A stretch of 53,320 nucleotides of DNA from a virus (IMGVR_UViG_3300021963_000165:1-53320); one strand, 5' to 3'. Numbered from the stretch's first letter, positions 11,374 through 47,850 are shown. Notes: generated from the sequence alone by a model not told the origin. A program made the numbers and translations.

Positions 11374-12038
11374 TGACCGAACAAACATCTGCCAGCAACG
11401 CGCTTGCCGTGAGTCAAGACTCAGGCGGCGTTTTCACTGGGATTCAACAATTTGAAAATGCACAAAGGATAGGGAAGGCGCTCGCCAGCAGCGCTTTGGT
11501 GCCGAAAGAATACCAAGGGCAACAGGGGCTTGCGAATGTCCTAGTGGCGATGGAGATCGCCAACCGCATGAACCTGTCACCCTTGCAGGTGATGCAGAAC
11601 CTTCACATTATCCACGGGCGGCCTAGTTGGTCGTCACAATTCATTATCGCCATGATCAATGGCTGCGGTCGTTTTACACCGCTTGATTACAATGTAACCG
11701 GGGAAGGAGACACTCTCAGCTGCTTCGCGTACGCAACTGAGTTGGCCACCGGTAAAGAACTGCGCGGTCCGGTCGTCACGATGGCTATGGCCAAACGTGA
11801 GGGCTGGGCGACTAAGTCGGGTTCTAAGTGGCAAACGATGCCGGACCTGATGTGTCGGTATCGGGCGGCTGCCTTTTGGGGCCGTCTCTACGTGCCCGAG
11901 TTTCTAGTGGGCATGAAAACACAAGAGGAGGTCATCGATATTGAGACAGTAGAGGTGCAAGAAGCGCCTTCGATTGTTGCTGACCTAAATGAAAAGATTA
12001 AGACCGAGGGGGATTCCCAAGATGACGCAGTCTGGTGA
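11373..12038 (+). CDS. RecT-like ssDNA annealing protein
   Basis: LSPLQVMQNLHIIHGRPSWSSQF, SKWQTMPDLMCRYRAAAFW; coupled to the RecE-like gene. Confidence 0.8.
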   Translation: MTEQTSASNALAVSQDSGGVFTGIQQFENAQRIGKALASSALVPKEYQGQQGLANVLVAMEIANRMNLSPLQVMQNLHIIHGRPSWSSQFIIAMINGCGRFTPLDYNVTGEGDTLSCFAYATELATGKELRGPVVTMAMAKREGWATKSGSKWQTMPDLMCRYRAAAFWGRLYVPEFLVGMKTQEEVIDIETVEVQEAPSIVADLNEKIKTEGDSQDDAVW

Positions 12039-12237
12039 CTACCTGACACCCCGTGAGCTTGCTGAGCGATGGCGTAATGTCGTTGCGCTCAGCACGCTCG
12101 ACAACTGGAGGTCGCAGCAACGCGGCCCCCGGTGGTTCAAGGCTGGTGGTCGGGTGCTCTACCCGATTAACGAAGTCGTTCAATTCGAGCAGCGCAACAT
12201 GCGCGGCTTTCCCAACAACATCAACGGAGACCGATGA
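12022..12237 (+). CDS. Excisionase-like HTH protein
   Basis: YLTPRELAERW...TLDNWR...GPRWFKAGGRVLY. Confidence 0.8.
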   Translation: MTQSGDYLTPRELAERWRNVVALSTLDNWRSQQRGPRWFKAGGRVLYPINEVVQFEQRNMRGFPNNINGDR

Positions 12238-14922: not shown

Positions 14923-15227
14923 CCTATCCCGAAAACCGCCTGCGGGAGATCTACCGCGAGCAGATGTCGCCACCGGTGACGCCGGATGCTGTGACGCTGA
15001 TCCGCTGGTGTGATCGCATCGAGACGCTGGCGCACTTCAATGTCGCCCGGCGCAACTGGAGCTATGAACAAGCCGGCACGCTGGTGGATGAGGTCAACGA
15101 GCTGATGCGCCTTTGGCGCGAGGAGCTGCCCACCTTCGTGGTGGAGATCCCGCAGCCCGATGGCACGGTGCTTAGCCGGCATGTGCAGGCACCGACCTAC
15201 GAGCAGGCCGTTCAGTTGTTTGAGTAG
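14919..15227 (+). CDS. Hypothetical protein
   Basis: ORF track. Confidence 0.65.
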   Translation: MTYPENRLREIYREQMSPPVTPDAVTLIRWCDRIETLAHFNVARRNWSYEQAGTLVDEVNELMRLWREELPTFVVEIPQPDGTVLSRHVQAPTYEQAVQLFE

Positions 15228-15406
15228 TCCATCAGCAGGAGCTCCAGCCTGGCAATCTCGTTGACGGCCTGCTGGAGCTGAAACTGCTGCTGACAGCACA
15301 GCCTGTAGAGCATTGCAGTACGAGGATCCTCCCTGCGTGCAACGGTTTCAACTGCCCATTTTTCTTCTGTCGTCATTTCAGCTTGAAGCCACTCGCCGAA
15401 CGTCAT
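15212..15406 (-). CDS. Small hypothetical protein, opposite strand to its neighbours
   Basis: MTFGEWLQAEM...QQAVNEIARLE; fills an otherwise empty gap. Confidence 0.55.
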   Translation of the reverse strand: MTFGEWLQAEMTTEEKWAVETVARREDPRTAMLYRLCCQQQFQLQQAVNEIARLELLLMDYSNN

Positions 15407-15884
15407 GGAGTTCAACAGCGATGATTTATCAACGCTAGGCACGCCTGTCTGTGAGCACAACAACCGATTTATCCGTGAATCGCGACCTCGCACTGATGGC
15501 CTGATCCGCCGCCGGTGGGAGTGCCGCGACTGCGGCGAGCGCTGGACGGTGTTCGGGCCTGATCGCAAGAAACGCCGCCGGCGCCGCAAGCCAGGCAAGC
15601 CACACCCGAAGCTGAAGCTCGAACACGTCCGCCGTGCGCTGATCGATCGGGAAACCTCGGATGTGAAGCTGGCGGCCGAGCTCGGTGTGTCGCGCCAGGC
15701 AATCCAGCAGATTCGTGCTGGCAAGACCTGGACGAAAGTGTTTCCGAACCTGAAGCGGCGGCCGCAGTGGCGCGATTGCACCGAATGCCGCCACTGGGAA
15801 GGCGATGGCTGCGGCCTGGGCTTCCCGGACCCGCTCGAGGAGGGCGTCGGTTTCGCCGTCGATTGCGATCTTTACGAAGTGTGA
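15405..15884 (+). CDS. Zn-ribbon + HTH + 4-Cys domain protein
   Basis: RRRWECRDCGERWT, LAAELGVSRQAIQQIR, CTECRHW. Confidence 0.75.
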   Translation: MEFNSDDLSTLGTPVCEHNNRFIRESRPRTDGLIRRRWECRDCGERWTVFGPDRKKRRRRRKPGKPHPKLKLEHVRRALIDRETSDVKLAAELGVSRQAIQQIRAGKTWTKVFPNLKRRPQWRDCTECRHWEGDGCGLGFPDPLEEGVGFAVDCDLYEV

Positions 15885-16069
15885 CAACCCGCGTGCCCGG
15901 TGCCGGACCGCCCGGCATCATTGACCTGTCCACCCCACCTCAAATGAAGCGCCTTCTGATTTTTTTGATCCCTGTGGCCACGATCGCCCTGATCGTCCAC
16001 GAGCACGCCACCAGCTGCAAAGTCGCCCATCACCCTGCTGCTGGATCTTTCCCTGTTTGCGAATGACCC

Positions 16070-16228
16070 ATGGAATCCAAGCAAAGTATTGATCTGATCA
16101 CGGCGGTCTACAGCCTCACCGACCAGTTGGTGGCGATGAACGGCACACTTGGGCTCATCGAGTCACGGCTGATGGAAATCGCAAACAGCGTCGACGTTTT
16201 GTCCGATGAGCTGACCAACGATGACTGA
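16070..16228 (+). CDS. Small hypothetical protein
   Basis: Hand translation MESKQSIDL...LTNDD. Confidence 0.45.
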   Translation: MESKQSIDLITAVYSLTDQLVAMNGTLGLIESRLMEIANSVDVLSDELTNDD

Positions 16229-16409
16229 ACGCCACTACCACTTCACCATCCCCCAGTCGAACGTCTACGACTTCGTCACCGCCGTGAGCTTCACCGATGC
16301 CAAATCCAAAGCCTTCGCCGAATACGGACCCTTCTGGAACCTCATCGAGTGGCTCGACCCGGAGGATGACGCTGAACGAAGCGCTGAGCCCATGGATGAG
16401 CGTGCGTGA
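16221..16409 (+). CDS. Hypothetical protein
   Basis: ORF track. Confidence 0.6.
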   Translation: MTERHYHFTIPQSNVYDFVTAVSFTDAKSKAFAEYGPFWNLIEWLDPEDDAERSAEPMDERA

Positions 16410-16617
16410 CGACATCGACTGGGACAGCTGCCCGGACAAGATCTGGGATCAGCTGCTCGAGCAGGCGCCCAAGGTGGCAGCCATCAGCCGGTTCTGGTTC
16501 CTGAAGGGGATCCACCGCGCTGTCACCGAGATGGAGCGCAAGATCGACGGCCGGCCGATGTGGCCCACCCGTCAAGACCTCATCGATCATCTCAACTCAA
16601 TCAATGCACCCAACTGA
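16366..16617 (+). CDS. Hypothetical protein
   Basis: ATG 16366 within ORF 16297..16617. Confidence 0.55.
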   Translation: MTLNEALSPWMSVRDDIDWDSCPDKIWDQLLEQAPKVAAISRFWFLKGIHRAVTEMERKIDGRPMWPTRQDLIDHLNSINAPN

Positions 16618-16993
16618 AGACGATTTTCGGCTGATCCCGGAAACTGCCAAGTACATGTCAGTCCGCACGCAGAACGCCCTGCTGCGGGGTGGCTTCTTTA
16701 CCGCTGAGCAGATCATGCTGGCCAGCACCGCCGACCTGATGAAGCTCAGGAGCTTCGGCATGCAGGCACTGGGCGAGGTCGCTGCCTGGCGCGATGCGCT
16801 GATGAAGCCCGACCCGACGCTCTACCGCGAGACCCACGAGGCCGTCACCAAGGCACTGAACGAGTGCGGCAGCTGCATGGCCGACCAGGAGGCCGTGGTG
16901 GCGATGAAGGTGATCTGGAATCGGATCGCCCGGGGGCCGTTCACTGCTGCCCGGATCCGTCAGATGCTGATGCCGGCAGAGGTGGAGGCGTGA
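16604..16993 (+). CDS. RNA polymerase alpha-CTD-like domain protein
   Basis: MSVRTQNALLRGG...DLMKLRSFGMQALGEV matches the alpha-CTD pattern LSVRS.NCL...LL...NFG.KSL.EI. Confidence 0.8.
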   Translation: MHPTEDDFRLIPETAKYMSVRTQNALLRGGFFTAEQIMLASTADLMKLRSFGMQALGEVAAWRDALMKPDPTLYRETHEAVTKALNECGSCMADQEAVVAMKVIWNRIARGPFTAARIRQMLMPAEVEA

Positions 16994-17187
16994 GCACTAT
17001 CCACCTAATTGGCGGCCCGGCTGATGGCCGTGAAGTGACCTGGAACTACGAAGGCTCGCAGCGGCTGCAGATGCCGATCTTTGGGCCAGATGGTCTGAGC
17101 TTCGGCAATTACCTGCAGGATCCAGACAACCCCAGCCGCTTTGTGTACGGCGGCATGGAGAAGCCGGAATGGAGCGCCGCTGAATGA
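16990..17187 (+). CDS. Hypothetical protein (LIGGPADG motif)
   Basis: GTG 16990 with GGAGG RBS. Confidence 0.6.
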   Translation: MSTIHLIGGPADGREVTWNYEGSQRLQMPIFGPDGLSFGNYLQDPDNPSRFVYGGMEKPEWSAAE

Positions 17188-17269
17188 CTCTTGCCACCGC
17201 CCTCTACTTCGCCGGTGCCTACTGGCTGATCTGTATCGCCTTCATCCTGATCTGCAGAAAGATCCTGCC

Positions 17270-17425
17270 ATGAACACGTTGCTTGCCGTCCTGGTGCTGG
17301 GCGGCTGCATAGTCTTTTACCTGCTGATCCTCGTCATGCTGGCGCTGATCACCTGCCACATCTGGCTTGAGCTCAAGGAAAGGCTCGAGGAGCGCCGTCG
17401 TCTTCGCTCCGGAGGTAAGCCATGA
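17270..17425 (+). CDS. Small membrane protein
   Basis: Long hydrophobic helix plus basic tail; preceded by a 29-aa hydrophobic ORF at 17184..17273. Confidence 0.55.
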   Translation: MNTLLAVLVLGGCIVFYLLILVMLALITCHIWLELKERLEERRRLRSGGKP

Positions 17426-17580
17426 CCATCGGCTACTACCGGATCCGCCTCACTCGCCAAGACGGCAGCGTCTGGATCTGGCTGACCTATGCCGTCTCTG
17501 CCACCAATGCCCATTGGATGGCGACCGAGCTCCACCCGACCTGCCAGGTCGAAGTGCTTGGCTTGGAAGGGCAATGGTGA
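17422..17580 (+). CDS. Small hypothetical protein
   Basis: GGAGG RBS; MTIGYYRIRL...LEGQW. Confidence 0.55.
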   Translation: MTIGYYRIRLTRQDGSVWIWLTYAVSATNAHWMATELHPTCQVEVLGLEGQW

Positions 17581-17771
17581 TTCACTCCGAGCAGGGCACC
17601 TGGAAGGGCCAGAACCACCCCTGCTACGGCGTTCATCCCGTCGACCGCGGGCTGGGGCTAGCGTTCCAGCCGTGGTGTTTCGACGGCGCCACGGTCACCT
17701 GGGGTCCGTCCTTCGAGACACACTCGGAGGCGATGACCTATGCACGCTCACTTGCTGGACACCATGTTTGA
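17574..17771 (+). CDS. Hypothetical phage protein
   Basis: YGVHP...FQPWCFDG..VTWGP. Confidence 0.55.
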   Translation: MVIHSEQGTWKGQNHPCYGVHPVDRGLGLAFQPWCFDGATVTWGPSFETHSEAMTYARSLAGHHV

Positions 17772-17976
17772 CTGCCACCCCCGCGAAGAACAGAAGAAGG
17801 CCGAATTTATCGACTTTCTTTATGAACAGAGCGGTCGCGATGAACTGCCTTATGGCCACCCGCTGCGCATGACCTACACCGGCCTCTGGCAGGAATTCAT
17901 GCAACGCAGTGCTGAAGAAGCGCGTGACGCTTGGTGGGACGTGCGTCAGATTGATGCAGAAGCATTCGATCGATGA
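17740..17976 (+). CDS. Hypothetical phage protein
   Basis: DFLYEQSGR....HP...TYTGLW motif. Confidence 0.65.
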   Translation: MHAHLLDTMFDCHPREEQKKAEFIDFLYEQSGRDELPYGHPLRMTYTGLWQEFMQRSAEEARDAWWDVRQIDAEAFDR

Positions 17977-18539
17977 ACAACGACTACGACCGCGACCGAC
18001 CACAACAGCTGATCGGGATCTATAGCCCGGCGCCGCAATCCGGCAAGACGTTCACCGCCACCGTGCTGACCCACCAAGGGTTCCAGCCGGTGTCATTTGC
18101 CGAGCCACTGAAGCGCATGGCGGTGACGTTTTTGATGGATTTCGGCTACCGCGAGGACGAAGCCTTGAAGCTGGTGTGGGTCGACAAGCACCGCCAGGTG
18201 CCTGAAATCGGCTGCACGGCTCGCGAGCTGCTGCAGCGCCTCGGCACTGAATTCGGCCGCCAGTGCATCGCTGACGACATCTGGATTCGGTGCTGGGAGA
18301 CACGGGTTCGGCGCTTCGACACGGTTGTCACCGACGACGTGCGTTTCCTCAACGAAGCAGAAGCGGTCAAGGCGCTCGGCGGCCAGATGTGGAAGGTTGT
18401 GCGGCCGTCGGCTGTTCGCAACACCGATCACGCATCTGAAGGCGGACTGGACAATTGGGACGGATTCGATGTCATCATTCAAAATGACGGCAGCCTTGAA
18501 CAATTCCGTCGCAAGATCGACGCGGCCTTATGGGGATGA
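17973..18539 (+). CDS. Deoxynucleoside monophosphate kinase
   Basis: SPAPQSGKT, SFAEPLK, RELLQRLGTEFGR, DDVRFLNE, HASE. Confidence 0.9.
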   Translation: MNNDYDRDRPQQLIGIYSPAPQSGKTFTATVLTHQGFQPVSFAEPLKRMAVTFLMDFGYREDEALKLVWVDKHRQVPEIGCTARELLQRLGTEFGRQCIADDIWIRCWETRVRRFDTVVTDDVRFLNEAEAVKALGGQMWKVVRPSAVRNTDHASEGGLDNWDGFDVIIQNDGSLEQFRRKIDAALWG

Positions 18540-18868
18540 TGCGGTTTCATGCTGGACGGATGGTGCTCTATCTAGAGCACTCCGTCTGGTGTGTTCGCGT
18601 CAAACTTGGCACGCGCCCTGATCAGCAGATCGATACAGCGCTGCAGACGGGTGAGGCAGAAGAGGCGATCTTCAGAGCGGAGCGAATCTACGCCGAACTG
18701 AAGCGCAGGCTGAACAAGAAAGCGGACGACAAGCCATTGTGCTGGCAGTGCATCCATTGGGAGGGCCTGAACGCACGATGTAGCTTCGGCTGGCCTGAGG
18801 CCCGCCAGACTGGTGGAAGATTCGCCGCGCAGTGCTCGGTTTTTAAGGCATGTCCGACCCGGAAGTGA
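18530..18868 (+). CDS. Hypothetical protein with C-terminal 4-Cys domain
   Basis: CWQCIHW...CSFGWPE...FAAQC. Confidence 0.65.
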   Translation: MGMMRFHAGRMVLYLEHSVWCVRVKLGTRPDQQIDTALQTGEAEEAIFRAERIYAELKRRLNKKADDKPLCWQCIHWEGLNARCSFGWPEARQTGGRFAAQCSVFKACPTRK

Positions 18869-19020
18869 TCAGCCGCATGGACCGCGACGGCGGCTACATC
18901 GAGACGCTCGATCGGCCGGGCTTTGAGATCTACTACCGCAGCTGCGCTCACGGCTACTGCCGGTACTCGAGCGACATGTGGCAGGCCGAGATCTACCTCG
19001 ACCACTTGCTGGCGCAATAG
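18850..19020 (+). CDS. Small hypothetical phage protein
   Basis: MSDPEVISR...YYRSCAHGYCRYSSDMWQAEIYL. Confidence 0.6.
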   Translation: MSDPEVISRMDRDGGYIETLDRPGFEIYYRSCAHGYCRYSSDMWQAEIYLDHLLAQ

Positions 19021-19120
19021 GTTGCCCGGTAGCCAGTCCTCCCGAGGTGCTGGCCTCACCGCTGCCGGGCGCAGCGGACGACTGAGATCCGAGATCAACA
19101 GAACCGTCAGGGTAGCAGGA

Positions 19121-19450
19121 TCACGACGCCAGGTGATCGTGCCTGCCCATGATCCAGTGAGTGATCGCCCATTCGTTCATCGCCGACCAAAAGGGCTGTT
19201 TCCTGTACCAGTCGACCCACGGGGACTTGCCCTTGGAAATGTTGCAGTTCCAGCAGGAGCTGACGAGGTTTTCCTTTACCGTCAGGCCGCCGTGGGCTTT
19301 GGGTACGACGTGATCCAGCGTCGGGCTACGGCCGAGCGGATCGTTGCAGTAGGCGCACCGATAGTCCCAGGCCAGGTGGATCTGGTCACGGAACCGAAGC
19401 CTCGCCTCCTTCCTCGTGATCAGCTCCGTCTCCGAGATCTGATGATCCAC
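19121..19450 (-). CDS. HNH endonuclease
   Basis: CAYC...TLDHVVPKAHGG...NLVSSCWNCN. Confidence 0.9.
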   Translation of the reverse strand: MDHQISETELITRKEARLRFRDQIHLAWDYRCAYCNDPLGRSPTLDHVVPKAHGGLTVKENLVSSCWNCNISKGKSPWVDWYRKQPFWSAMNEWAITHWIMGRHDHLAS

Positions 19451-19619
19451 CTGATTCCGGGGGTAGGGGAAAGGCATCCAGCTCGATGTGGACGATGTGC
19501 TCGTCCGACGGGATGAACTCGGCGATGCGGGCGTAGGTGTTCTTGATGAACTCCTCAACGGAGTCTTCGTCCGCATGCACGACGACCTTGGCCGACACCT
19601 CAAGCAGGTAGCTCGCCAT
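19386..19619 (-). CDS. Small acidic hypothetical protein
   Basis: ORF track. Confidence 0.6.
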   Translation of the reverse strand: MASYLLEVSAKVVVHADEDSVEEFIKNTYARIAEFIPSDEHIVHIELDAFPLPPESGGSSDLGDGADHEEGGEASVP

Positions 19620-19704
19620 CGGCGGAACCGGGCCAAGTCTTCATAGACGGTAGCCAGACGCACTGCGCGGCAAGGTTTTCTTTGGGATCACTGCGGGATT
19701 GGGG

Positions 19705-19988
19705 CTGCGCCAATAGTGCGCCAATGGCGTCGGCGGGCTTATTTCACACCCGCCGTCTGGAGTTCTAGGTGTCTGATTTCTTTGAGGAAAATGGTGCCCA
19801 GGGGCGGAATCGAACCACCGACACTGCGATTTTCAGTCGTACGTTTAGGACTTCACTCCTATTATTTCAGGTTCACGGAAATTACCGATTCCTAGCTAAA
19901 TCAATGCTTTACCTCGATTCGCTCTTCCCGTAAATTCACGCTCATTGGCGCAACTTTTTGCGATTCTGCGCCAATAGTGCGCCAATGG
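19705..19988. mobile_element. attP region with integrase arm-type repeats
   Basis: Identical 23-mer CTGCGCCAATAGTGCGCCAATGG at 19705 and 19966; inverted half-site at 19943; tRNA core between them; adjacent integrase. Confidence 0.85.
19792..19839 (-). tRNA. 3' half of tRNA-Phe(GAA), attP core (not a full tRNA)
   Basis: CGACTGAAAATCGCAGTGTCGGTGGTTCGATTCCGCCCCTGGGCACCA; D-arm and 5' acceptor strand absent. Confidence 0.9.
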
Positions 19989-19998
19989 GAGAGCCTGA

Positions 19999-21150
19999 AT
20001 GGCACTGCGGAAGGAAGACATCAAGGCCGCTGTCAAGAGCAAATCGGAGGGCTGGCTGAAGGATGAGAAGGTGGCCGGCCTCGGCGTGCTGATCACCGCC
20101 AAGGGCGCCGCGACCTGGTATCTGCGCTACCGCCTGCCGGACGGAAAGCAGGAGAAGCACAAGATCGGCCCAGCGCTATCCATCCCGCCGGAGATGGCCC
20201 GCGACGAAGCGCACAAGGTGCTCGGTGGGGTGGCTAAAGGCGAAACACCTACCAAGGATCGCCGCACGGTGCGCCGCGGCAAGACCGTCGCTGAGCTCTG
20301 CGAGATGGTGAAGGCCGAGCACTACGCCAAGCGCCGCAAGAACACCGTCGTCGGCTACATGGTGCTCTGGAACAACTGGATCCTGCCTGAGATCGGCTCC
20401 ACCAAGGTCGCGAGCCTCGAGACGCTGCAGGTGGTCGACCTGCTCAAGAAGATGCCGAAGACCCAGGCCAACCGGGCGCTGGCGGTGCTGCGCAAGGCGC
20501 TGAACCTGGCCGAGCTGTGGGGGCTGCGGCCGAAGTTCTCCAACCCCTGCAAGGGCATCGAGGGCAATGGCGAGCGCAAGATCAAGCGCTACCTAACCCG
20601 CGACGAGCTGGACCGGCTTCTCAAAGCACTGGATACGTTCGGCACGACCCCAGTGCGCTGGCGTTTTGCCCAACTGGTGCGGCTGCTGCTTCTGACGGGG
20701 TGCCGGGTGGGCGAGATCAAGAATGCTCGCTGGGAATGGCTCGACGACGAAGCAATGGTGCTGACTGTTCCCGCTGAGGAACATAAGACCGGCCAGGACG
20801 GTAACCCACGGATAGTTCATATCCCGCCCGAAGCGTGTCTCATCTTAAAAGAAATGAGACGCAAGTCGAATTCTGACTGGATTATTCAGGGCGATGGTGA
20901 TCACCCATTGGTGGGATATGCCCGCCTGTGGAGCAAATTGCTGGTCGCCGCGCAGATCAAGAACCTGCGCATTCACGACACGCGACATTCCTACGCCAGC
21001 TACGCCATCAGCAAGGCGAAGCTGACCCTCCCGGAGGTTGGTGGGCTGCTGGGCCACGCCAGCCCGCAGACAACGCAGCGCTACGCACACCTGATCGACG
21101 AGGCTGCCGCCAAGGCTGCTGCGATGGTGGCGGCGCAGCTGCGGCGCTAA
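19999..21150 (+). CDS. int: Tyrosine integrase with N-terminal arm-binding domain
   Basis: LLTGCRVGEI, HKT, RIHDTRHSYAS, LLGH...TQRYAHL. Confidence 0.95.
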   Translation: MALRKEDIKAAVKSKSEGWLKDEKVAGLGVLITAKGAATWYLRYRLPDGKQEKHKIGPALSIPPEMARDEAHKVLGGVAKGETPTKDRRTVRRGKTVAELCEMVKAEHYAKRRKNTVVGYMVLWNNWILPEIGSTKVASLETLQVVDLLKKMPKTQANRALAVLRKALNLAELWGLRPKFSNPCKGIEGNGERKIKRYLTRDELDRLLKALDTFGTTPVRWRFAQLVRLLLLTGCRVGEIKNARWEWLDDEAMVLTVPAEEHKTGQDGNPRIVHIPPEACLILKEMRRKSNSDWIIQGDGDHPLVGYARLWSKLLVAAQIKNLRIHDTRHSYASYAISKAKLTLPEVGGLLGHASPQTTQRYAHLIDEAAAKAAAMVAAQLRR

Positions 21151-21449
21151 TCCTCCTCGGTGTACCAGGGGCTCGGCTTGTAGCCGGGCTCCAGTTCATC
21201 GGTGAGCACCGGCTGCACCTGGCGCTGGATGATCATCTCGTAGAGGGTCGCGTAGGCGATCACCTCCTTCAAATGCTTGGACAGCGCCTCATATTCGCTC
21301 TGGCCGACCACGCCGATGTCGTTCTCCTGGTCGGCGTAGCAGAGAAACATCATGGCCGCCTCCTTTGGGCGGCCGTCTGCAAACAGCTCGTAGGCCATGG
21401 CCAGCCCCTCGCGTGGGCTCAGTTCGCCGTTGCGAGAGGCAAATCTCAT
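21147..21449 (-). CDS. Hypothetical protein
   Basis: ORF track. Confidence 0.65.
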   Translation of the reverse strand: MRFASRNGELSPREGLAMAYELFADGRPKEAAMMFLCYADQENDIGVVGQSEYEALSKHLKEVIAYATLYEMIIQRQVQPVLTDELEPGYKPSPWYTEED

Positions 21450-22177
21450 GGCGCTAGGCGTGCTCGGTGCAGCCTAGTCCGCTCATACCAGCCTGCGATC
21501 TCGGGCGCCCACACCTGGAACCGCGGCATCATGCCGTCACACAGCGCCTGGATTTCAGGCTGGGCATCGGCCTTGGCCCGCAGGTCAAGGAAGTGCATCA
21601 GCGCCCGCATACTGAACGACACGACGAAGTTCTGCCGGAAGTCGAACGGGATCATGCCGCGGGCATGCTCCTCAGCCCAGCCGGCGTTGATCTTCTCCTG
21701 GTAGCGGCCGGCCGCCATGAAGCACTCCTCAATGTCGCGCTCACGCTGCTCGGCGGTGTAGGTGTAGCGCTTGCCCTGCCGGTCGCGGTAGTTGCCCACC
21801 GGGCGCAGGTAGAACACGTCCTCGATGTTGAGCTCACCCGCCGCGGCCGCAATGATGCGCTTGCCGGTGTAGCGGCCAGACTGCACGTCGAAGCTGATGC
21901 CCACGCGATGCGTGCGTGCCTGCTGCATCACCGAGTGCGGAAAGCCTGCAGTGGCCAGCGTGATGCTCGGGTGCTCTAGCGGACCGTAGTGGCCGCGCTC
22001 ACCAGCTAGTAGGTGTTTGATCACCAGCTCGCCAGCGGTGCGCTCTTCGGGCGCCTCGCAGTCCAGCACCGAGCCCTCGTGGTAGTCGGTGTGCATGGCC
22101 CGCCAGATGGTGGTCTGCGGTTCAAAGGTCCAGCTCAAGATTCCGACGCGGAACCGGTCGTCGATCAGGCTTCCCAT
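21446..22177 (-). CDS. thyX: FAD-dependent thymidylate synthase (cyanobacterial type)
   Basis: GHYGPLEH, QQARTHRVGISFDVQSGRY, EHARG, HFLDLR..DAQ.EI. Confidence 0.95.
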   Translation of the reverse strand: MGSLIDDRFRVGILSWTFEPQTTIWRAMHTDYHEGSVLDCEAPEERTAGELVIKHLLAGERGHYGPLEHPSITLATAGFPHSVMQQARTHRVGISFDVQSGRYTGKRIIAAAAGELNIEDVFYLRPVGNYRDRQGKRYTYTAEQRERDIEECFMAAGRYQEKINAGWAEEHARGMIPFDFRQNFVVSFSMRALMHFLDLRAKADAQPEIQALCDGMMPRFQVWAPEIAGWYERTRLHRARLAP

Positions 22178-22683
22178 GACGGCATGACGTGGTTGTGCTT
22201 GTTGTAATGCCCAACGGCGGCATAGGAGATGTCCGGCACCCCAGCCATCAGGTGGAACACCATCTGTCCGACCTTCAGCCCGGGCCAGAGCTTCAGCGGC
22301 CGCAGCTGGCGGGCGTTGGTGAGCTCAAGAGTGAGCTTGGATCCGTTCCATTGTGGATCCGCGAAACCGGCATGGCTGTGCTCGAGGCCTTCGCGGGCGC
22401 GGCTGGACTTCAGGAAGAACAGCCCGGCAATGTCGTCGGGCATGTTGAACGTCTCCCAGGTCTCCGCGAGGATCCACTGGCCGGGCTTCAGCAGGTAGGG
22501 ATTCTCCTTGTTGTGCTCACTGATGTCGACACGCACCAGCTCATCGGTGGTGGCGCTTTCGATCATGATCTCGTTGCCCAGTAGCAGGTCATAGCTGGCC
22601 GGGTTGAGCTGCTCGACATCAAACGGGACGATCATGCGCTCCACTTCGCAGAGGCGCTTGATCTCTCGATCATGCAAAATCAC
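22165..22683 (-). CDS. dcd: dCTP deaminase
   Basis: ILHDREI, LNPASYDL, KSSRAREG, AGFADP.WNG. Confidence 0.92.
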   Translation of the reverse strand: MILHDREIKRLCEVERMIVPFDVEQLNPASYDLLLGNEIMIESATTDELVRVDISEHNKENPYLLKPGQWILAETWETFNMPDDIAGLFFLKSSRAREGLEHSHAGFADPQWNGSKLTLELTNARQLRPLKLWPGLKVGQMVFHLMAGVPDISYAAVGHYNKHNHVMPSWEA

Positions 22684-22757
22684 GGTCGCAGCAGGTCGCA
22701 GGGGATGCCCCAAGCTACCGGCAGCTCCAGCGGCGGTCCCGGATCAGTCGCAAAACG

Positions 22758-23933
22758 TCACTGTGAGACCAGCACCGCCCAGCCTGAGCCGGGGCCTTCA
22801 ACCTCCCAGCGCCGAAGCCAGTTCTTGCGGCTGTAGCCGATTGCGGCGCCCTTGCTGTTGACGTAGCCGCCGTTGACCATGTCGCACTCGCCGAACGGGT
22901 CGTTGTGGACGATCTGCAGCGGGTTATGGCCCACCACGACGCTCCAGTGGCCGCCACCGCTCGGTGCCGAGGCTGGACCCTTGTGCAGCCAGCCGACCGC
23001 CACCGGCCGCCCGGCGTTGATCTCGCGCTCGAGTATCGCCACGTTGCAGGACTGAATGAACTGCGCCTTCAGGCCGAGCGATTGCAGGGTCTTCACCTGC
23101 GCCCCGGCTTCGGTGGTGTCGCCGTACTGGGCGCGGATCTTGTTGTATTCGTCGTCGGTCTTCACCTTGCCGTAGAAGGCCGCGATCATGGCGCAGGACG
23201 ACGAGAAACACTCGCGGTAGCCCTCACCGGACTGGTTGTCGCGCTGGCTGAAGTAGGGCACGGTGAGCCGCACGGCATCAGCCGGCATCTCCTCCATGTC
23301 CTCCATCCAGAGCTTGCCTTCAGCGGTGCGCCGGCGCTTCAGGCCGGCCTCCACCGAGCTGCCCGGATTCCGGTACAGCAGCATCGCCGCCGGCACATCC
23401 TTCCACCGGCGCTCGTTCAGCGCAGCGGTGATGGTCATGAACCCGGAAGAGCCGTAGAAGCCCGAGCCGAGGTTGTAGGCGAACGAGATCAGCGCTGACT
23501 TCTGACAGTCGCCCATCTCCTTCCAGTGCGGAATGGTGCTGCCCAGCTTGGTCGCAATCCGATCGACCTCCTGACGCAGGAGCATGTCGGCCTCGATCGC
23601 GTTGATCTTGTCGCCCTTCTGCACCTTGCGGCCGTCGTTGTAGCGGGTGGTGCCGTAGCCGATCGTGGCCACGTCCCACCCGTGCAACGGATCGGGGTAA
23701 GCCTCGAGATGGCAACCCTCGAACTCCTTGATCAGCTTCAGCGCCGGCGCCAGGTCAGCCTGCTTGCCGTCTTGGCTCCAGGTGCTGAACCACGGCCGAT
23801 CGCGACGCATCGCAGCGGCGTAGCCGTTTTCGCGCAGATCGTTCTGCAACTCGACGATGGCCGCGGCCTGGTGGGGCAGGGCCTTGTAGTAGCGGAACAG
23901 CTGCTCGAGGCTAATCGGGGAGGCGTTGCTCAC
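22758..23933 (-). CDS. Endolysin: GH24 lysozyme plus C39-like peptidase
   Basis: IKEFEGCHLEAYPD...TIGYGTT; VPYFSQRD...ECFSSSCAM...GGGHW...HNDPFG. Confidence 0.9.
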   Translation of the reverse strand: MSNASPISLEQLFRYYKALPHQAAAIVELQNDLRENGYAAAMRRDRPWFSTWSQDGKQADLAPALKLIKEFEGCHLEAYPDPLHGWDVATIGYGTTRYNDGRKVQKGDKINAIEADMLLRQEVDRIATKLGSTIPHWKEMGDCQKSALISFAYNLGSGFYGSSGFMTITAALNERRWKDVPAAMLLYRNPGSSVEAGLKRRRTAEGKLWMEDMEEMPADAVRLTVPYFSQRDNQSGEGYRECFSSSCAMIAAFYGKVKTDDEYNKIRAQYGDTTEAGAQVKTLQSLGLKAQFIQSCNVAILEREINAGRPVAVGWLHKGPASAPSGGGHWSVVVGHNPLQIVHNDPFGECDMVNGGYVNSKGAAIGYSRKNWLRRWEVEGPGSGWAVLVSQ

Positions 23934-24106
23934 TCGCGACTCCAGGGCGACTTGATTTCCATGGCACCACCAAGCAGCCGGCTGTCACCGGTCTGCAGCT
24001 CTTCGTCGATCGGGTGATGCTCGATCACTGGGGCTGGCACGCTTTGTGGCTGTGTGGCGTGCCAGTCCTCGATAGCGCGATCAAGCCGCGGCCCGATCGT
24101 CAGCGT
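23930..24106 (-). CDS. Start-less ORF (58 aa), predicted -1 frameshift extension of the holin-like gene
   Basis: Open -1 frame after CCCAAAA; its stop overlaps the endolysin GTG. Confidence 0.6.
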   Translation of the reverse strand, partial: TLTIGPRLDRAIEDWHATQPQSVPAPVIEHHPIDEELQTGDSRLLGGAMEIKSPWSRE

Positions 24107-24237
24107 TTTGGGAAGGCAAGCCGCAGGAACTGCAGGATCAGCTGGATGATGCTGTTGGCACGCAGCGGGCTGAGCGCAATGGCCTCAGATGCAGCTGCGA
24201 CGATGATCGCGATAATGGCGGCGGTGGTGGGGTCCAT
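24100..24237 (-). CDS. Holin-like small membrane protein (45 aa)
   Basis: MDPTTAAIIAIIVAAASEAIALSPLRANSIIQLILQFLRLAFPKR, upstream of the endolysin. Confidence 0.7.
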   Translation of the reverse strand: MDPTTAAIIAIIVAAASEAIALSPLRANSIIQLILQFLRLAFPKR

Positions 24238-24276
24238 GCCGAGGATCACTAGGGGACTCCTTAAAGGCTAGCCCGA

Positions 24277-24537
24277 TCAGCGCGGCTGGGCATTGACCGG
24301 CTGCAGGTCAAGACGAAGGTGCCCCGTAATGAATGACGCAAACGGCGGCAGGATCAGGCTGGCGAGCACTGCGGCCAACACCACCTGCGCCATGCGTGTT
24401 TCCAGCTTTCCGATGCGCTGGAAGATGTCTTTCTTCTCGTCGTCATCTCGCGTCTGGCTCAGCAGGATGGCGTCCATCTTGCCTTGGAGCACGCCGAGCT
24501 CCCTATAGATTTCGGCGTGAGACACCTCGCGCTCCAT
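24277..24537 (-). CDS. Coiled-coil plus TM protein (lysis-associated)
   Basis: VSHAEIYRELGVLQGKMD, hydrophobic C-terminus; AGGAG RBS. Confidence 0.7.
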   Translation of the reverse strand: MEREVSHAEIYRELGVLQGKMDAILLSQTRDDDEKKDIFQRIGKLETRMAQVVLAAVLASLILPPFASFITGHLRLDLQPVNAQPR

Positions 24538-24561
24538 AGGTCTCCTCTCGACTGGGTAATC

Positions 24562-24714
24562 CTAGTCAGTGGGGATGGACGGACCATCACCGAGAGGATC
24601 AGGCCGGCCGGCGAGGATCGCAACAGCCCGCTTGTAGTACCAGTTGTCGGTTTTGCCCGCTGCCTCGAGAGCGTCCCTGACTTTTCGCCAGTTTTCGCGC
24701 TCGTAGGCGTCCAT
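24562..24714 (-). CDS. Small hypothetical phage protein (50 aa)
   Basis: MDAYERENWRKVRDALEAAGKTDNWYYKRAVAI; TAATG overlap. Confidence 0.65.
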   Translation of the reverse strand: MDAYERENWRKVRDALEAAGKTDNWYYKRAVAILAGRPDPLGDGPSIPTD

Positions 24715-24851
24715 TACCGGCCTTGCCCTCTGAGGGGCTTCTTGCCGCGCCGCCGAGGGCGGGACTGCTGCCCGAAACCCTGGCGGGTTGTCTTTGGCGG
24801 GCCAGCCTGGTGCTCGATGCGAGCGGTGCCGGTCTTGGACTTAACGGCCAT
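24714..24851 (-). CDS. Small basic protein (45 aa)
   Basis: MAVKSKTG...KKPLRGQGR; TGATG overlap. Confidence 0.6.
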   Translation of the reverse strand: MAVKSKTGTARIEHQAGPPKTTRQGFGQQSRPRRRGKKPLRGQGR

Positions 24852-25369
24852 CAGGCTGCCTCGCCATCGACAACAGGCTGAACCCCATCAGCAGGAGCAG
24901 GCTCAGCAGGAGCATAGGGATCACGAGGCCAAACCGGATAGTCGGCGCCTGTAATGTATCCGGCCAGTTCAGCTGTGTCAGTGGTTTGTGCGATTGCGCT
25001 GATCTTGGTGCCGGTGGCTAGGCGGATGTCTTCGCGCCAGGTCTTGATGGCGGGATCCGCGGGTTTGCCGTTATCAGCCTCGCGGATGATAGTCCAGTCA
25101 GTTGGGGTGAGCAGACTGTTGGCGGTGGCGCGTGTCTGCTGGGTCCACTGCTCGACCAGTTGTGCGTGATCTTTCCAGATTGGGTTGCCGCCTTCGGTCC
25201 AGCCCCACTGAAAACGCTGATCGTATGGCTGAGGGTCCGGCACTTCGGTGATGCCGATGGCGGTGCGCTCCTCAGGGGTTGCAAGCCGGAGCCAGTTGGC
25301 GGGGTATTGCACGCCATTGTGGGTGAACGCCACGTCTGGGCTCAGTGGCTTGCCGTCGAGGAGAAACAT
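24851..25369 (-). CDS. Tail fibre assembly chaperone
   Basis: QYPANWLRLAT.EER.AIGITE, LLTPTDW..IR. Confidence 0.75.
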   Translation of the reverse strand: MFLLDGKPLSPDVAFTHNGVQYPANWLRLATPEERTAIGITEVPDPQPYDQRFQWGWTEGGNPIWKDHAQLVEQWTQQTRATANSLLTPTDWTIIREADNGKPADPAIKTWREDIRLATGTKISAIAQTTDTAELAGYITGADYPVWPRDPYAPAEPAPADGVQPVVDGEAA

Positions 25370-25625: not shown

Positions 25626-25683
25626 GAGTTGCCTAGCGGGTAGAACAGGTCAATGCAGTAAAAGCGGAACATCGGATGCAGGT

Positions 25684-28074
25684 TTAGCGTGCGCGGGCGT
25701 ATTGGAAGGGATTTTCGGCTACGGCGTAGTAGATGTAAGTGGCGCTGCTGATATTTTTGCCGCTGCCAGCTCCTCGAATTTTGAAGCCGTTTGAAAGAAT
25801 ATCAACACCCTGGCCAGTTCCAAGATTGTACGAACCTTCAGCATCACTGAGATCAGCAGCAAGGGTGTTGTCCCTAGCAGTATCAATTATTTCCCAGAAT
25901 GTGTAACCGTTATTAGTGCTGGAACACTTAAACATAATCCACCTCGGCCTAAACCCGGTATAAACAAACGGCCCATCTGCGCTGCCATTGCCGGTGTAGC
26001 TGCCGAAAGAAGAGTACCCGGCTACTGGGGCGAAGCAGTAGGCAACGTAAGTGCCGCCGCTTGCATTAACCGTCGCGTCAGTGCCAACGCTGAACACGGT
26101 CGAAGATGGCGCCGTGCTGTTCCAAACTGTTGTTGCAGATGCAGCGGCGTTTGTCAGGTTCAGTTGGATGCTGTTGGCTGCTGCGATGGAGGTGTGACGC
26201 ACCTGCCAGTTGCCGGTGGAGTTGCGGTGTTTGACGATGACCATGCCTGGCGCGACACCAAGGCCGTGGCCCACGGTGGCATTGGCGCCTGTTCCTGTGT
26301 AGGTGACGACGCTAAACCCCGCACTCGCATTAGCCCTCACCTGACTAGAGATGGAGCCTTGTGTGTTGGTAACTGTTGATGATCCGGCGTCCCAGGTCCA
26401 GGCGACGTAGGAATTGCTAGACGCATTTACACCAGGACTATTGCCAACCGTAAATCCGTCAGACGTAAATGCAGTCAACTTATCGACATCAGTAGATTCT
26501 GCATCGGTAAGATTACTATTAAGCTGTTTAGTGGCACCTCGAATTGTGTCAAACAGGCTGTGACTATTAGCCCCTGATCTGTTTTTATTCCACACCAAAT
26601 CCGGGCTAAACCCCAACCCGCTGATCGTCTGCGTGCTGCCATTACCGGTGTAGAGCTTCACGTCAAACGCCGTCGAAGGCTTGGCGACTACTGGGGCGGG
26701 GAGGTTGGTATCGCACAGTGCCTTGAAGCCACTTACGGGATAGGCGAAGGGGCGTTGGCCGAAGTTGGTGGCAAAAGAATCACCGGCAGCACCCGATCCA
26801 TCAGTCAGGGACGGGAAAAGTTCGGAGACAGTTCCAGAGATTGCGCCTTGTGATGCACCGTTTTTGTAAAAAGTAATCGTCCCTGCATCGACATCTACTG
26901 CAATACCGATTACATCGTTGGTTGTGTAAGAGGCTCCGTAGGTTGTTCCGGTTCCAGAAATGAACTTGCGCCCGTCCGTGTAGTAGAAAATTGCGCCAGT
27001 AACAGTCTGATTATTTGCTGTTGGGCTATAAGGAGATATGCCAATCATCGCGGTATTACCCGAGATGTATAAAACCTCCCAGTACCATTTGCCTGACGAT
27101 GGAAGCGCAAAAGTACCAAAAACATTTCCACCACCCGATGACGGCGTAGTAATGTCTAAATTGCCATTGGTGAATGTTGAAGCGGTAGAACTTTTGGCAA
27201 CAGGATTCCAAGTGCAATAGTTTCCCCTCACCTCCCCACCAGCGCCTGTATCGGTGCCGTAGCTCGTGGGCGTGTCCGTTAGGGAATCGTTGCCTGCACC
27301 AGCGGTGACGCTGAGGTTATTCGGCGTCCAGTTGTTGGAATTCCCGCTGTAATCCTTGCCAAGGGTGGTAGCAGTGGCGGCTGAGTTATCGGAGAATTTC
27401 AGCCAGAAACCATTTGTACCGAAACTTCCCGAATAAGCTTTAGGAACGAGTTGCCCAGTAGTGGCACTGACTTCTGTGAAGCTGGATGGTGTTAGGGCTT
27501 GGCCGTCGATGAAGTGGATGTCGGCGAGGTAGGCGTCTAAGAGTCGAGAAGAAAATTGCGATTCGCCTCCAATCCGGTGCTCAACATTATTATTGCAATA
27601 CGAGTCGGCATTGCTGGATGGATATACTACTGAGTAAGTGCCGCTGGCAAATTGAGTAATCCTCGACCCGTTTACATATAATCGAATTCTTTCTGTGCTG
27701 GTAGCGTTGGTTGAATCATACGCAAATACTACGTGCATCCAAGCCGAGTAGTCCCTGTAAACTGCCGCCGTCTGCAGGGTGGAGTTAAATGAAGATCCGT
27801 TGTAGTCGTAGTAAGTTAGCGCATCATTCTCAAATCTAAAAATAAAATTATTGCTAGTAGTAGTGAACAGCGATTGGTAAGTCTGTTGCGCCGCACTCCG
27901 CTTCACCCACCCCGCCCAAGTCCACGTCTTGCGGTTGCCGGCTGATGCGGGGGTGCGGGACAAGTAGGCACTGTCACTACTGTTGAATCGCAGGCTGCGT
28001 TCAATTTGATAGGCAGCAGCGGCTCCCCCCTGGCCAGAGGAGCCGATCAGCATGTTCTCGTGGAAGACTGACAT
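25684..28074 (-). CDS. Tail fibre / receptor-binding protein with LamG- and SPRY-like domains
   Basis: SLRFN...RKTWTW, SGKWYWEV, YTGNG repeats, GFSPDLVW. Confidence 0.8.
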   Translation of the reverse strand: MSVFHENMLIGSSGQGGAAAAYQIERSLRFNSSDSAYLSRTPASAGNRKTWTWAGWVKRSAAQQTYQSLFTTTSNNFIFRFENDALTYYDYNGSSFNSTLQTAAVYRDYSAWMHVVFAYDSTNATSTERIRLYVNGSRITQFASGTYSVVYPSSNADSYCNNNVEHRIGGESQFSSRLLDAYLADIHFIDGQALTPSSFTEVSATTGQLVPKAYSGSFGTNGFWLKFSDNSAATATTLGKDYSGNSNNWTPNNLSVTAGAGNDSLTDTPTSYGTDTGAGGEVRGNYCTWNPVAKSSTASTFTNGNLDITTPSSGGGNVFGTFALPSSGKWYWEVLYISGNTAMIGISPYSPTANNQTVTGAIFYYTDGRKFISGTGTTYGASYTTNDVIGIAVDVDAGTITFYKNGASQGAISGTVSELFPSLTDGSGAAGDSFATNFGQRPFAYPVSGFKALCDTNLPAPVVAKPSTAFDVKLYTGNGSTQTISGLGFSPDLVWNKNRSGANSHSLFDTIRGATKQLNSNLTDAESTDVDKLTAFTSDGFTVGNSPGVNASSNSYVAWTWDAGSSTVTNTQGSISSQVRANASAGFSVVTYTGTGANATVGHGLGVAPGMVIVKHRNSTGNWQVRHTSIAAANSIQLNLTNAAASATTVWNSTAPSSTVFSVGTDATVNASGGTYVAYCFAPVAGYSSFGSYTGNGSADGPFVYTGFRPRWIMFKCSSTNNGYTFWEIIDTARDNTLAADLSDAEGSYNLGTGQGVDILSNGFKIRGAGSGKNISSATYIYYAVAENPFQYARAR

Positions 28075-45600: not shown

Positions 45601-47850
45601 TCAGGACAGAGCGCCGGTGCCGTAGCAGAAGGCGCCGGCCTGCTTCACAGCGAAGTCGACATCCTGCAGAGCAATGATGCGCACGGTGCCGCTGGTGGCG
45701 CCGGCGTAGGGATCGAGGGTCAGGTCAAGACCGGACCACATGCCCATGATCATCTGGTTGAAAGCACCGAACACGATGTCATCCAGCAGCAGCTGGTTGG
45801 ACAGCACCACGGGGTAGCCGTTCACTTCGTCGTTCTCGTAGACGAACTTGGCTTCCGTGCCAGCCACGCTGGTGGTCTTCAGAGCGCCGCGAGCAGAGGC
45901 GTTCATCAGATAGCGCATGGCGCCGATGTCGGCGTTGTCCTTGGCGACCTCGGTCTCCATCTGCACCAGCTGGGCGAAAGTGCCGTAGCCGGTCAGGTTG
46001 ACGGTGTTGATGCCAGCGGTGTTAATCAGGCCCAGGGGCTGGTTGCTGTTACCGGAGCCATACAGGCCAGCGCGGTCGATCTCGAGAGCGATCACGCGAG
46101 CCAGGTCGTTGCGCACCATCTGCTCCACATCGATGGAGCTCTGGAGCAGCAGGCGACGGCTGTAGTCGACGAAGGCGCCCACGGTCTTGGGCGACATGGT
46201 CACCTGACCCAGGGTCTGCTCGGACTCGGTCGGAGCGTTGCCTTCACCCACCCAGTAAGCAGTGGCAGCGCCGGTCTGCTTGGGAATAGCGACGTTGCCC
46301 TGCAGGCCGTTCAGCACGGTGGCGCCGACTTGAGCCAGAGCGAGGCGGTTGCGAAGCAGCTCGATGAAGGAGCCAGCCAGCAGATCGGTGGCAACAAGGT
46401 TGCCGCCAGCGGTAGCGGGGGAGGTGGCCAGGTCACGGCGCAGCACCTCGTTGGGCACCATCAGGCCGTTGGCAGGCTTGCCGTAGGCCTTGGTGGCAGC
46501 GTCAGAAACTTCGCGCTCGAAAGCGGCAGCTTCAGCGGCCTGCTTGTCGCCAGGGTTGGCGAGGTAGTTCAGGGCGCGGAGGAAGGAGTAGCTGCGGGTC
46601 TCCTTCTCGTTCAGGCCGACCTCATTGGTCGATTCGATGCGGTGCTCCACTTTGGTGCTGCGGGTGTCGATTTTTTCGAGGAAGGCAGCACGGGCCTCGT
46701 CGAGGCTGCGGCCACCGTCGATGAGCTCACGTGCAAGCTCGGTCATGCCGTGCTTGTCGCCGAGGGCGGTGATGGAAGCGATACGGCTACGCTCGGCCTC
46801 GACGGCCTTGGACCGGATCACCTCCACGTCAGGGGTGGTGTTCTCCATTTGAACCTCAGGTTCTTGAGGGGTTGGTGATGCGGCGGTGGCCGCAGAGTCG
46901 ATCGCAAGCGACCGGCCTACACCCACAGTGGGGTCTGCCGGGATGCTAACAACCGACACTTCGTACGGACTCCACTGAGTGGCTACGAAGTTGTCGCCTC
47001 GCTCCTCCATCTTGTCGATGGCATAGCCAAAGCTGACGCCCCGAAGAACGCCGTCTTTAACATCAGCCATCACCTCCTTGGCGAAGCTATTGCGAGAGAA
47101 GCGGACTTTGACGTAGCCACGCTTCTTTTTGCCGTCGACCCATGCACGCTCGACGACACCCACCACCTTGTCAGGGTTGTGGTTGAAGAGCAGAGGTGCG
47201 CCCGAATTGAGTCGGGTCAGGTCAGCGGCTTCACCCTCGTGGCTCAGCACTTCGTTGCCGAAGTATCGAGCTACGGGGTATTCGGAGCTGAAGGGAAACT
47301 CGAAAGTCCGATCCTCCACCTCCGCGAAGACGGTGGCTTCGGTGCGCTGATATTTTCCTTCCATCGAGCGAAGGGCGTCGATCTTGGTCAGGGTGCTGAA
47401 GCGATGACCAACCATCGTCTCAGTTGCCTGCCAACCTTCTGCACCTTCGCGGAAAATGCGGATCAGCGCAGCGGGATCCTCTTCTGAGGCCTCGATGCTG
47501 AACTCGCTGTCGGGAACACCTAGTGTTCCCTCGCGCATGATGTGCTCGATCTGGCCACGGGCGCGGCCGCCAGAGCTATTCCAGCTGACGAAATCGCCAG
47601 TCTTAAGGTCGCCAGGCTTGGCTCGCTCGATGACCATCGGCATCACCTCTTCCTCGGCTGCTTCTTCAGCTTCGGTTTCGGCCTCGGGGTCTTCGCCAGA
47701 GAGGGTCTCGATCACATCCTCGACCACTTCGGCCATGTGCTCAGCCACGACCTCGGCCACGGTTTCACCAATAGCCGCTACTTGTTCTTCGGAAAGATCG
47801 TGCATTGCACGCTCTTTCTGCTCGTTGGTTTGTTCTTTGAGTTCGTCCAT
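45601..47850 (-). CDS. Prohead protease - major capsid fusion (HK97 fold)
   Basis: PLLFNH, GVSFGY, EVSVVSIPAD; GGNLVATD, SRRLLLQSSIDVE. Confidence 0.92.
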   Translation of the reverse strand: MDELKEQTNEQKERAMHDLSEEQVAAIGETVAEVVAEHMAEVVEDVIETLSGEDPEAETEAEEAAEEEVMPMVIERAKPGDLKTGDFVSWNSSGGRARGQIEHIMREGTLGVPDSEFSIEASEEDPAALIRIFREGAEGWQATETMVGHRFSTLTKIDALRSMEGKYQRTEATVFAEVEDRTFEFPFSSEYPVARYFGNEVLSHEGEAADLTRLNSGAPLLFNHNPDKVVGVVERAWVDGKKKRGYVKVRFSRNSFAKEVMADVKDGVLRGVSFGYAIDKMEERGDNFVATQWSPYEVSVVSIPADPTVGVGRSLAIDSAATAASPTPQEPEVQMENTTPDVEVIRSKAVEAERSRIASITALGDKHGMTELARELIDGGRSLDEARAAFLEKIDTRSTKVEHRIESTNEVGLNEKETRSYSFLRALNYLANPGDKQAAEAAAFEREVSDAATKAYGKPANGLMVPNEVLRRDLATSPATAGGNLVATDLLAGSFIELLRNRLALAQVGATVLNGLQGNVAIPKQTGAATAYWVGEGNAPTESEQTLGQVTMSPKTVGAFVDYSRRLLLQSSIDVEQMVRNDLARVIALEIDRAGLYGSGNSNQPLGLINTAGINTVNLTGYGTFAQLVQMETEVAKDNADIGAMRYLMNASARGALKTTSVAGTEAKFVYENDEVNGYPVVLSNQLLLDDIVFGAFNQMIMGMWSGLDLTLDPYAGATSGTVRIIALQDVDFAVKQAGAFCYGTGALS

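Follow-up and report, generated by a model that had tools for sequence, protein, structure and literature searches.

Opposed host signals in a complete cyanophage-like siphovirus with an alphaproteobacterial-type tRNA-Phe attachment site

The integration module described here occupies positions 19705-21150 of IMGVR_UViG_3300021963_000165, a complete temperate lambda-like siphovirus of 53,320 nucleotides (this whole stretch of DNA, at its full length, is referred to as the window). The module is an ordinary tRNA-targeting phage attachment site (attP) of standard anatomy, placed beside an intact tyrosine integrase gene, and is composed of the following features:

19706-19714 and 19717-19725, plus strand: P-arm, with the arm-type site TGCGCCAAT in two direct copies
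19792..19839, minus strand: attP core, equal to the final 48 nt of a tRNA-Phe(GAA) gene of alphaproteobacterial type, encoded CCA included
19899..19911, plus strand: site resembling the consensus of integration host factor (IHF), lying between the core and the arm sites near the integrase, of putative function
19944-19952, minus strand: P'-arm, one inverted TGCGCCAAT copy
19967-19986, plus strand: P'-arm, two direct copies of TGCGCCAAT, 13 nt ahead of the integrase start
19999..21150, plus strand: tyrosine integrase of 383 aa with an N-terminal arm-DNA-binding domain

The minus-strand sequence of the core (19839..19792) is CGA-CTGAAAA-TCGCA-GTGTC-GGTGG-TTCGATT-CCGCC-CCTGGGC-A-CCA. It is composed, in this order, of 3 nt of the 5' anticodon-stem strand, the GAA anticodon loop, the TCGCA stem strand, the variable loop, the T arm, the acceptor strand and the encoded CCA; the TCGCA strand and the acceptor sequence CCTGGGC-ACCA, both named in the initial annotation of this DNA, are found there. 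The core is a fragment of a tRNA and no gene. ARAGORN detected no tRNA gene in the window, and the core scored 17.3 bits against the Rfam tRNA model, whose cut-off is 29.

All five copies of TGCGCCAAT present in the window are located within 19706-19986 (expectation 0.82), and none of 100 shuffled sequences reached five copies. The exact IHF consensus reported earlier at 19899-19911 is present and unique: AATCAATGCTTTA is an exact match to WATCAANNNNTTR, the sole one in the window. Since WATCAANNNNTTR is expected 0.46 times per window and at least one match occurred in 34 of the 100 shuffles, such a match is not rare by chance, and the weight of this IHF-like site comes only from its position inside attP. 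The integrase carries the Phage_integrase (PF00589; 2.7e-20) and Arm-DNA-bind_3 (PF13356; 1.4e-12) Pfam domains, and its translation contains the motifs TGCRVGE, HDTRH and GH...RYAHL; its nearest matches among cultured phages are proteins of Ralstonia and Aeromonas phages (34-36% identity).

A scan with an exact 40-nt part of the core, performed with one genome per species, returned at least 120 stretches. Among the 120 matches listed, 119 were proteobacterial by record title, one came from an 'Actinomycetes' metagenome-assembled genome (MAG) and none was cyanobacterial; all the proteobacterial matches listed with a name below phylum level belonged to alphaproteobacterial taxa. In seven of seven of these alphaproteobacterial loci that were read, the tRNA-Phe gene was the same 76-nt sequence, of which the phage core is the last 48 nt. 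The exact 48-mer was found in 7 of 101 evenly drawn alphaproteobacterial genomes and a version with at most 3 mismatches in 14; one of the seven, G001, was the centre genome, chosen for its match, and the count is otherwise 6 of 100. An exact attB is thus present in alphaproteobacterial genomes, and by its sequence the core is alphaproteobacterial in type, in agreement with the initial annotation, which had named this origin. As the core is confined to part of the class, the lack of cyanobacterial matches among the 120 listed is informative, provided that these are a fair sample.

Further searches concerned the same tRNA. In IMG/VR, the exact core occurred in 20 stretches, comprising 10 whole tRNA-Phe genes adjoining proviruses, with an identical 5' half in all 10, and 10 fragments. 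A tRNA-Phe search of a plasmid collection gave no cyanobacterial record among the 60 of 240 matches listed, and that of a phage collection gave 1029 records, in which tRNAs carried by phages and a small number of bacterial contigs offered nothing usable. The motif previously put forward as cyanobacterial tRNA-Phe was found in the literature only in a chloroplast-genome paper; this cyanobacterial/chloroplast motif occurred at no fewer than 110 loci in IMG/VR, among which the sole relative of the window, L186, has a chance copy inside a gene. Printed tRNA-Phe or att sequences were found only in the chloroplast paper and in unrelated papers. Two inoviruses labelled with a Synechococcus host matched the tRNA-Phe fragment at 88%, and one of them (Yong-M4-251; L122) differs in the anticodon arm and acceptor stem; the host label was not trusted. 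In the latter record (OM868077.1, recorded host Synechococcus sp. PCC 7002), the tRNA-Phe 3' fragment lies at 1501-1550, downstream of the integrase and hypothetical genes, and its anticodon arm is unlike both the alphaproteobacterial type and the proposed cyanobacterial motif, so that it may be worth checking the recorded host.

IMG/VR contains 22 relatives of the integrase (52-61% identity). At the place of the core, two carry the same tRNA-Phe sequence as the window, 14 the 3' half of an initiator tRNA and four a non-tRNA sequence, while two records are too short. All tRNA cores of these relatives end in an encoded CCA. The 14 initiator-tRNA cores fall into three variants, all reading CTCATAACCTGAAGG, i.e., U41. 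PMC5389676 reports extraordinary conservation of the three G:C pairs in initiator tRNAs, and the U41 form (A29:U41) is described there for all alphaproteobacteria and a few mycoplasmas. Among 301 alphaproteobacterial genomes, variant 1 was found with at most 3 mismatches in 98 and exactly in 10, and variant 2 exactly in nine (it also occurs in the unpublished G041, which was not counted); in three genomes (G011, G042 and G070) the tRNA-Phe core and an initiator-tRNA core are each present as exact matches. In alphaproteobacterial DNA, integrases 32% identical to that of the window adjoin tRNA-Phe (L063 and L077), and one of 37% identity lies 265 nt from an exact initiator tRNA (G114). The integrase-bearing branch of the lineage therefore appears, judging from these cores, to target alphaproteobacterial tRNAs.

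The records of five relatives (G402-G406) were compared whole. Four of them (G402, G403, G404 and G406, the IMG/VR records behind L124, L131, L133 and L166) are complete uncultured phages, have window-like capsids (51-66%; G405 is the exception) and share with the window the integrase family and the attP plan. The tRNA-Phe core of G402 and G406 is identical to that of the window, whereas G403 and G404 target the initiator tRNA; all four genomes are smaller (38-44 kb). The five relatives have 19-32 of the 66 open reading frames (ORFs) of the window in common, and in the vicinity of attP they keep the succession endolysin, dCTP deaminase, int, attP, HNH. Relatives carry their own version of the arm repeat on both sides of the core, and an alignment of four attPs showed that the arm repeats co-vary with the integrase. 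In these aligned sites the core is invariant and the flanks have diverged; that not one letter of it differs among four diverged phages speaks for a core in use. At the corresponding position, L124, L144 and L166 lack the exact IHF consensus. A putative excisionase is also shared:

11989..12237, plus strand: candidate excisionase or small helix-turn-helix regulator (PHROG 66), weak

The product matches PHROG 66 ('excisionase and transcriptional regulator') with E = 4.9e-4, a role we consider tentative, and is kept at 51-71% in G402-G406.

Pfam searches with 67 ORFs of G403, G404 and G406 revealed no host-specific gene. Organism labels exist for three relatives, all of them metagenome bins and therefore weak: Rhodospirillales (integrase, 60%), and Marivivens and Gammaproteobacteria (terminase, 74-76%). 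Hundreds of terminase relatives were found at 73-76%, on contigs of up to 62.7 kb among the clusters looked up. As a separate observation, four integrase relatives of the G405 type (L140-L143) have the arm-site plan and a conserved non-tRNA sequence at the place of the core; this candidate core is no tRNA, had no Rfam match and was not found in 151 alphaproteobacterial genomes.

The rest of the genome gives a different picture. As the initial annotation had remarked, it is cyanophage-like: 27 of the 66 ORFs match the cultured cyanosiphoviruses S-CBS1, S-CBS3, S-LBS1 or S-H1, with identities of up to 67-70% (capsid 50-54%, portal 51-53%, tail tube up to 67%, part of the endolysin 68-70%, ThyX 60%). 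A nucleotide search of 19000-23000 against cultured phages gave 14 records, 13 of which were Synechococcus phages. Two roseophages that share the head module with the window gave matches to no more than 8 ORFs, at 23-47%. The host signals thus truly conflict. Within this likeness, two results set the window apart from the cultured cyanophages. The cyanobacterial group-2 sigma factor encoded by three of three cultured relatives (S-CBS1, S-CBS3 and S-LBS1) is present in none of the six genomes formed by the window and G402-G406, and no sigma-factor or photosynthesis-type auxiliary family was found among 40 ORFs in Pfam and 35 in PHROGs. In the portal tree, the same three cultured phages form a clade (100/100) without the window. 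The terminase tree is mosaic, the window pairing with S-LBS1 (100/100), so that genes have moved between branches. Compositional signals did not separate cyanophages from alphaproteobacterial DNA; this applies to Shine-Dalgarno enrichment, to palindrome and GANTC avoidance, and to the highly iterated palindrome HIP1 (6 occurrences against 3.1 expected).

Three ways out of this conflict had been proposed at the outset, namely a chimeric assembly, a cross-phylum capture of the module and an unexpected host; the first is refuted, the second is unlikely and the third is supported. A chimera would have joined cyanophage DNA to a fragment of an alphaproteobacterial prophage at the tRNA-like repeat, and in public data some contigs do end as at a shared repeat. 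Contigs from four public runs were placed on 15000-25000, with matches down to 90% alike, and contigs of runs X1 and X3 ended inside the core (19810-19820 and 19818-19847); one set of these loose ends continues as the 5' half of the alphaproteobacterial-type tRNA. However, such ends are expected, since the cellular tRNA gene shares the repeat. A 4481-nt contig from another study (X2) spans 19067-23538 with 90 differing letters and bridges attP, the integrase and the genes on either side, crossing both edges. The complete relatives G402, G403, G404 and G406 have the same arrangement, and the record closes on itself through a PHROG 1617 gene lying across both of its ends. We regard the chance of a chimera as negligible. 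High summed depth over the bin containing the core was seen in X1 and X4, where, given contigs only 90% alike, it is not assignable to one organism.

In the case of a recent capture, the virus would be a cyanophage that acquired the module across the phylum boundary, the module being useless in a cyanobacterium or else enabling lysogeny in a second host. Such an event would account for opposed host signals in one verified molecule, the nearest cultured-phage integrases are proteobacterial, and the terminase tree shows that modules have been exchanged in this lineage. Nevertheless, the integrase family, the arms, the tRNA-type core and the gene order are all found in the complete relatives, and as their integrases are only 40-61% identical, the module must be old in the clade. 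There is also no jump in G+C content or in G+C at third codon positions (GC3), the integrase GC3 being 0.81 against 0.84-0.89 in its neighbours, and the unchanged core of the four diverged phages speaks for its use. A recent capture is therefore quite improbable.

We think, with moderate confidence, that the host is an aquatic alphaproteobacterium and no cyanobacterium, and that the window is a temperate phage related to the cyanosiphoviruses. This reading is favored by (i) the exact core, (ii) the U41 cores of the sister phages, (iii) the missing sigma factor, (iv) the portal clade and (v) the related integrases located at the same tRNAs. The cyanophage look of the genome would arise because the only cultured relatives of a widespread lineage are Synechococcus siphoviruses.

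Several results weigh against an alphaproteobacterial host. The similarity of 27 ORFs to cultured cyanosiphoviruses and the pairing of the terminase with that of S-LBS1 point the other way, and the apparent absence of a cyanobacterial tRNA-Phe match rests on the core scan and the sister phages. Close prophage relatives were not found in the sampled alphaproteobacterial genomes, where the best integrases were 32-37% identical; the best tail-tube match in 401 genomes reached 42%, with any match in only 25, and none of the 10 genomes with an exact initiator-tRNA core carries an integrase above 37%. Among the best 120 matches, no integrase relative of at least 52% lies on a contig longer than 83 kb. 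The integrated form, sought as a core-plus-arm junction, was found 0 times in IMG/VR, and among metagenome contigs there was one chance match in a membrane-protein gene. tRNA-Phe is moreover described, in PMC8995045, as an integration hotspot of tyrosine-recombinase elements in Synechococcus and Cyanobium. The last point of this kind concerns a feature located outside attP:

2221-2267: three tandem near-perfect 14-bp palindromes, AGTACAAATGTAC[G/T], with 16-17 bp spacing

The cyanobacterial LexA-box consensus given in PMC3091678 is AGTACWNWTGTACT, and the palindromes fit it exactly, as three perfect boxes. The pattern has 3 sites in the window (5 matches over both strands), against an expectation of 0.22, and none of 100 shuffles reached 5; the cyanobacterial-type LexA boxes of the initial annotation are therefore borne out as sequences, and LexA may bind them. 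The alphaproteobacterial motif GTTCN7GTTC occurs at chance level (2 against 1.45 expected). In five alphaproteobacterial genomes with an exact attB, each genome had 3-11 matches to the cyanobacterial pattern, the reversed control giving 32-135, and nothing in them resembled the phage boxes. As the pattern is rare and unlike in these genomes, an alphaproteobacterial LexA does not explain the boxes.

The same observations can be taken to indicate a picocyanobacterial host of the Synechococcus/Cyanobium type, in which case the window would be an ordinary temperate cyanosiphovirus of a host whose tRNA-Phe 3' half happens to be the same as the alphaproteobacterial one, and there would be no conflict. 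To the gene content and identity to S-CBS1, S-CBS3, S-LBS1 and S-H1, the terminase grouping, the three LexA boxes and the known tRNA-Phe hotspot (PMC8995045) may be added the occurrence of this phage in runs that carry marine and freshwater metagenome labels and come from three studies other than the possible source. Prophage copies on long contigs are missing, and lysogeny is rare in unicellular cyanobacteria according to PMC6157547. Against this stands the core scan. Approximately 6-7% of the sampled alphaproteobacterial species have the exact core, yet none of the 120 matches listed is cyanobacterial, so that few cyanobacterial species can have it, if the sample is fair. The sister cores are U41 initiator tRNAs, a type described in PMC5389676 for all alphaproteobacteria and a few mycoplasmas, the sigma factor of the cultured relatives is missing, and every core ends in an encoded CCA. 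The LexA-like boxes, for their part, lie in a repeat-rich and A+T-rich region, are absent from G402-G406, S-CBS1, S-CBS3, S-LBS1 and S-H1, and may be sites for a phage protein. On balance, a picocyanobacterial host seems unlikely.

A further possibility is that the S-CBS1-like lineage straddles two phyla. A phage having working parts for both, namely three LexA operators of cyanobacterial type where its packaging and structural operon starts and an attP fitting alphaproteobacterial tRNA-Phe only, could be a recent host-jumper, or could grow in a picocyanobacterium and lysogenise a co-occurring alphaproteobacterium; we give this only a slim chance.

The boxes lie ahead, in the leftward direction, of the PHROG 1617 gene and the packaging/structural operon. 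Adjoining the palindromes, at 2072-2140, are four copies of GCAC(A)CCTAACCG (CCTAACC-type iterons), and in S-LBS1 (L149, 34262-34617) repeated (T)GCCTAACCT words occur at the matching place by the small terminase gene. These iterons beside terminase genes may be terminase-binding or origin iterons common to the lineage. The preceding region, 840-2000, comprises approximately 1.2 kb without a convincing ORF and contains many GGAAAGCA-like words, e.g., GGAAAGCATGGCG.

In an alphaproteobacterial host, integration would proceed as in other phages with an arm-binding integrase. The N-terminal domain of the integrase would bind the five TGCGCCAAT arm sites, and its core-binding and catalytic domains the imperfect inverted repeat made by the anticodon stem; the IHF-like site may serve a bending protein. 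Strand exchange is predicted to fall in the host tRNA-Phe gene, within its 7-nt anticodon loop or beside it. The phage-borne 48 nt would replace the displaced 3' part and give an intact tRNA-Phe gene at one prophage end, and the displaced host copy would end up beside int at the other.

As regards the genome as a whole, the 53,320-b IMG/VR record is a whole virus with a CheckV completeness of 100%. The PHROG 1617 gene is split by its ends (1-837 and 52878-53320, minus strand), and thus the record, designated linear in IMG/VR, represents a closed or permuted genome. Pfam and PHROGs searches identified head and tail genes (gpA-type large terminase, lambda-family portal, protease-capsid fusion, tail tube and tape measure) as well as genes for endolysin, dCTP deaminase, ThyX, dNMP kinase, SSB, helicase and primase. 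The capsid gene (45601-47850) is a three-part fusion of a TUDOR-like Hva1 domain, an S78 prohead protease and an HK97-type capsid protein. The endolysin (22758-23933) combines a lysozyme domain with a C39/C70-like cysteine peptidase; in the endolysins of G403 and G404 (L307:7377-8456 and L304:2638-3717), the lysozyme part is 71-73% identical, but the partner is a Peptidase_M15_3 domain, i.e., the domains have been swapped. Approximately 2.4 kb (25626-28073) lack an ORF passing the GC3 filter, and the G+C minimum of the window (0.518) is at 26001-28000.

The integration module is a textbook one, and its significance lies in the host assignment. Gene similarity alone would classify this virus as a cyanophage, while the temperate branch to which it belongs carries cores diagnostic of Alphaproteobacteria. 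If the alphaproteobacterial assignment is true, it cautions against host prediction that relies solely on similar genes. Read recruitment to S-CBS1- and S-LBS1-like genomes may then count phages of heterotrophs in estimates of cyanophage abundance and of picocyanobacterial lysogeny, and structural and lysis proteins 50-75% identical would cross the phylum boundary. Were the cyanobacterial assignment true, the window would be one of the rare picocyanophages that are both temperate and complete, with its attP defined and regulation by LexA possible.

Among known systems, tycheposon-like elements of marine Synechococcus and Cyanobium are located at the tRNA-Phe(GAA) that precedes the phycobilisome rod region (PMC8995045). 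Like the module of the window, they combine a tyrosine recombinase with a tRNA-Phe target, and they carry a remnant tRNA copy at the far end; they are, however, small cellular islands and no phages (same source). The cultured cyanosiphoviruses S-CBS1 and S-CBS3 (Chesapeake Bay) and S-LBS1 (Lake Bourget; PMC6157547) have, like the window, a lambda-like head and tail module, in which the gpA terminase, the lambda-family portal, the protease-capsid fusion and the tail tube are 35-67% identical. In contrast to the window, S-CBS1 and S-CBS3 have no annotated integrase, and that of S-LBS1 is not matched by the integrase of the window. The latter genome is also larger (53 kb against 30-35 kb) and has extra genes for ThyX, dCTP deaminase and dNMP kinase.

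The attPs of lambda/P4-style integrases reportedly lie at the anticodon-loop region of tRNA genes in the sublocation classes of Williams 2002 and in the 'A' class of Islander. The site in the window resembles them in having an arm-binding integrase, arm repeats on both sides and a possible IHF site, as well as a core that extends from the anticodon stem-loop to the 3' end of the tRNA and would rebuild the gene after insertion. Nothing essential distinguishes it from these sites; what is new are the arm-site word and the probable host, into whose tRNA-Phe gene the phage is predicted to integrate.

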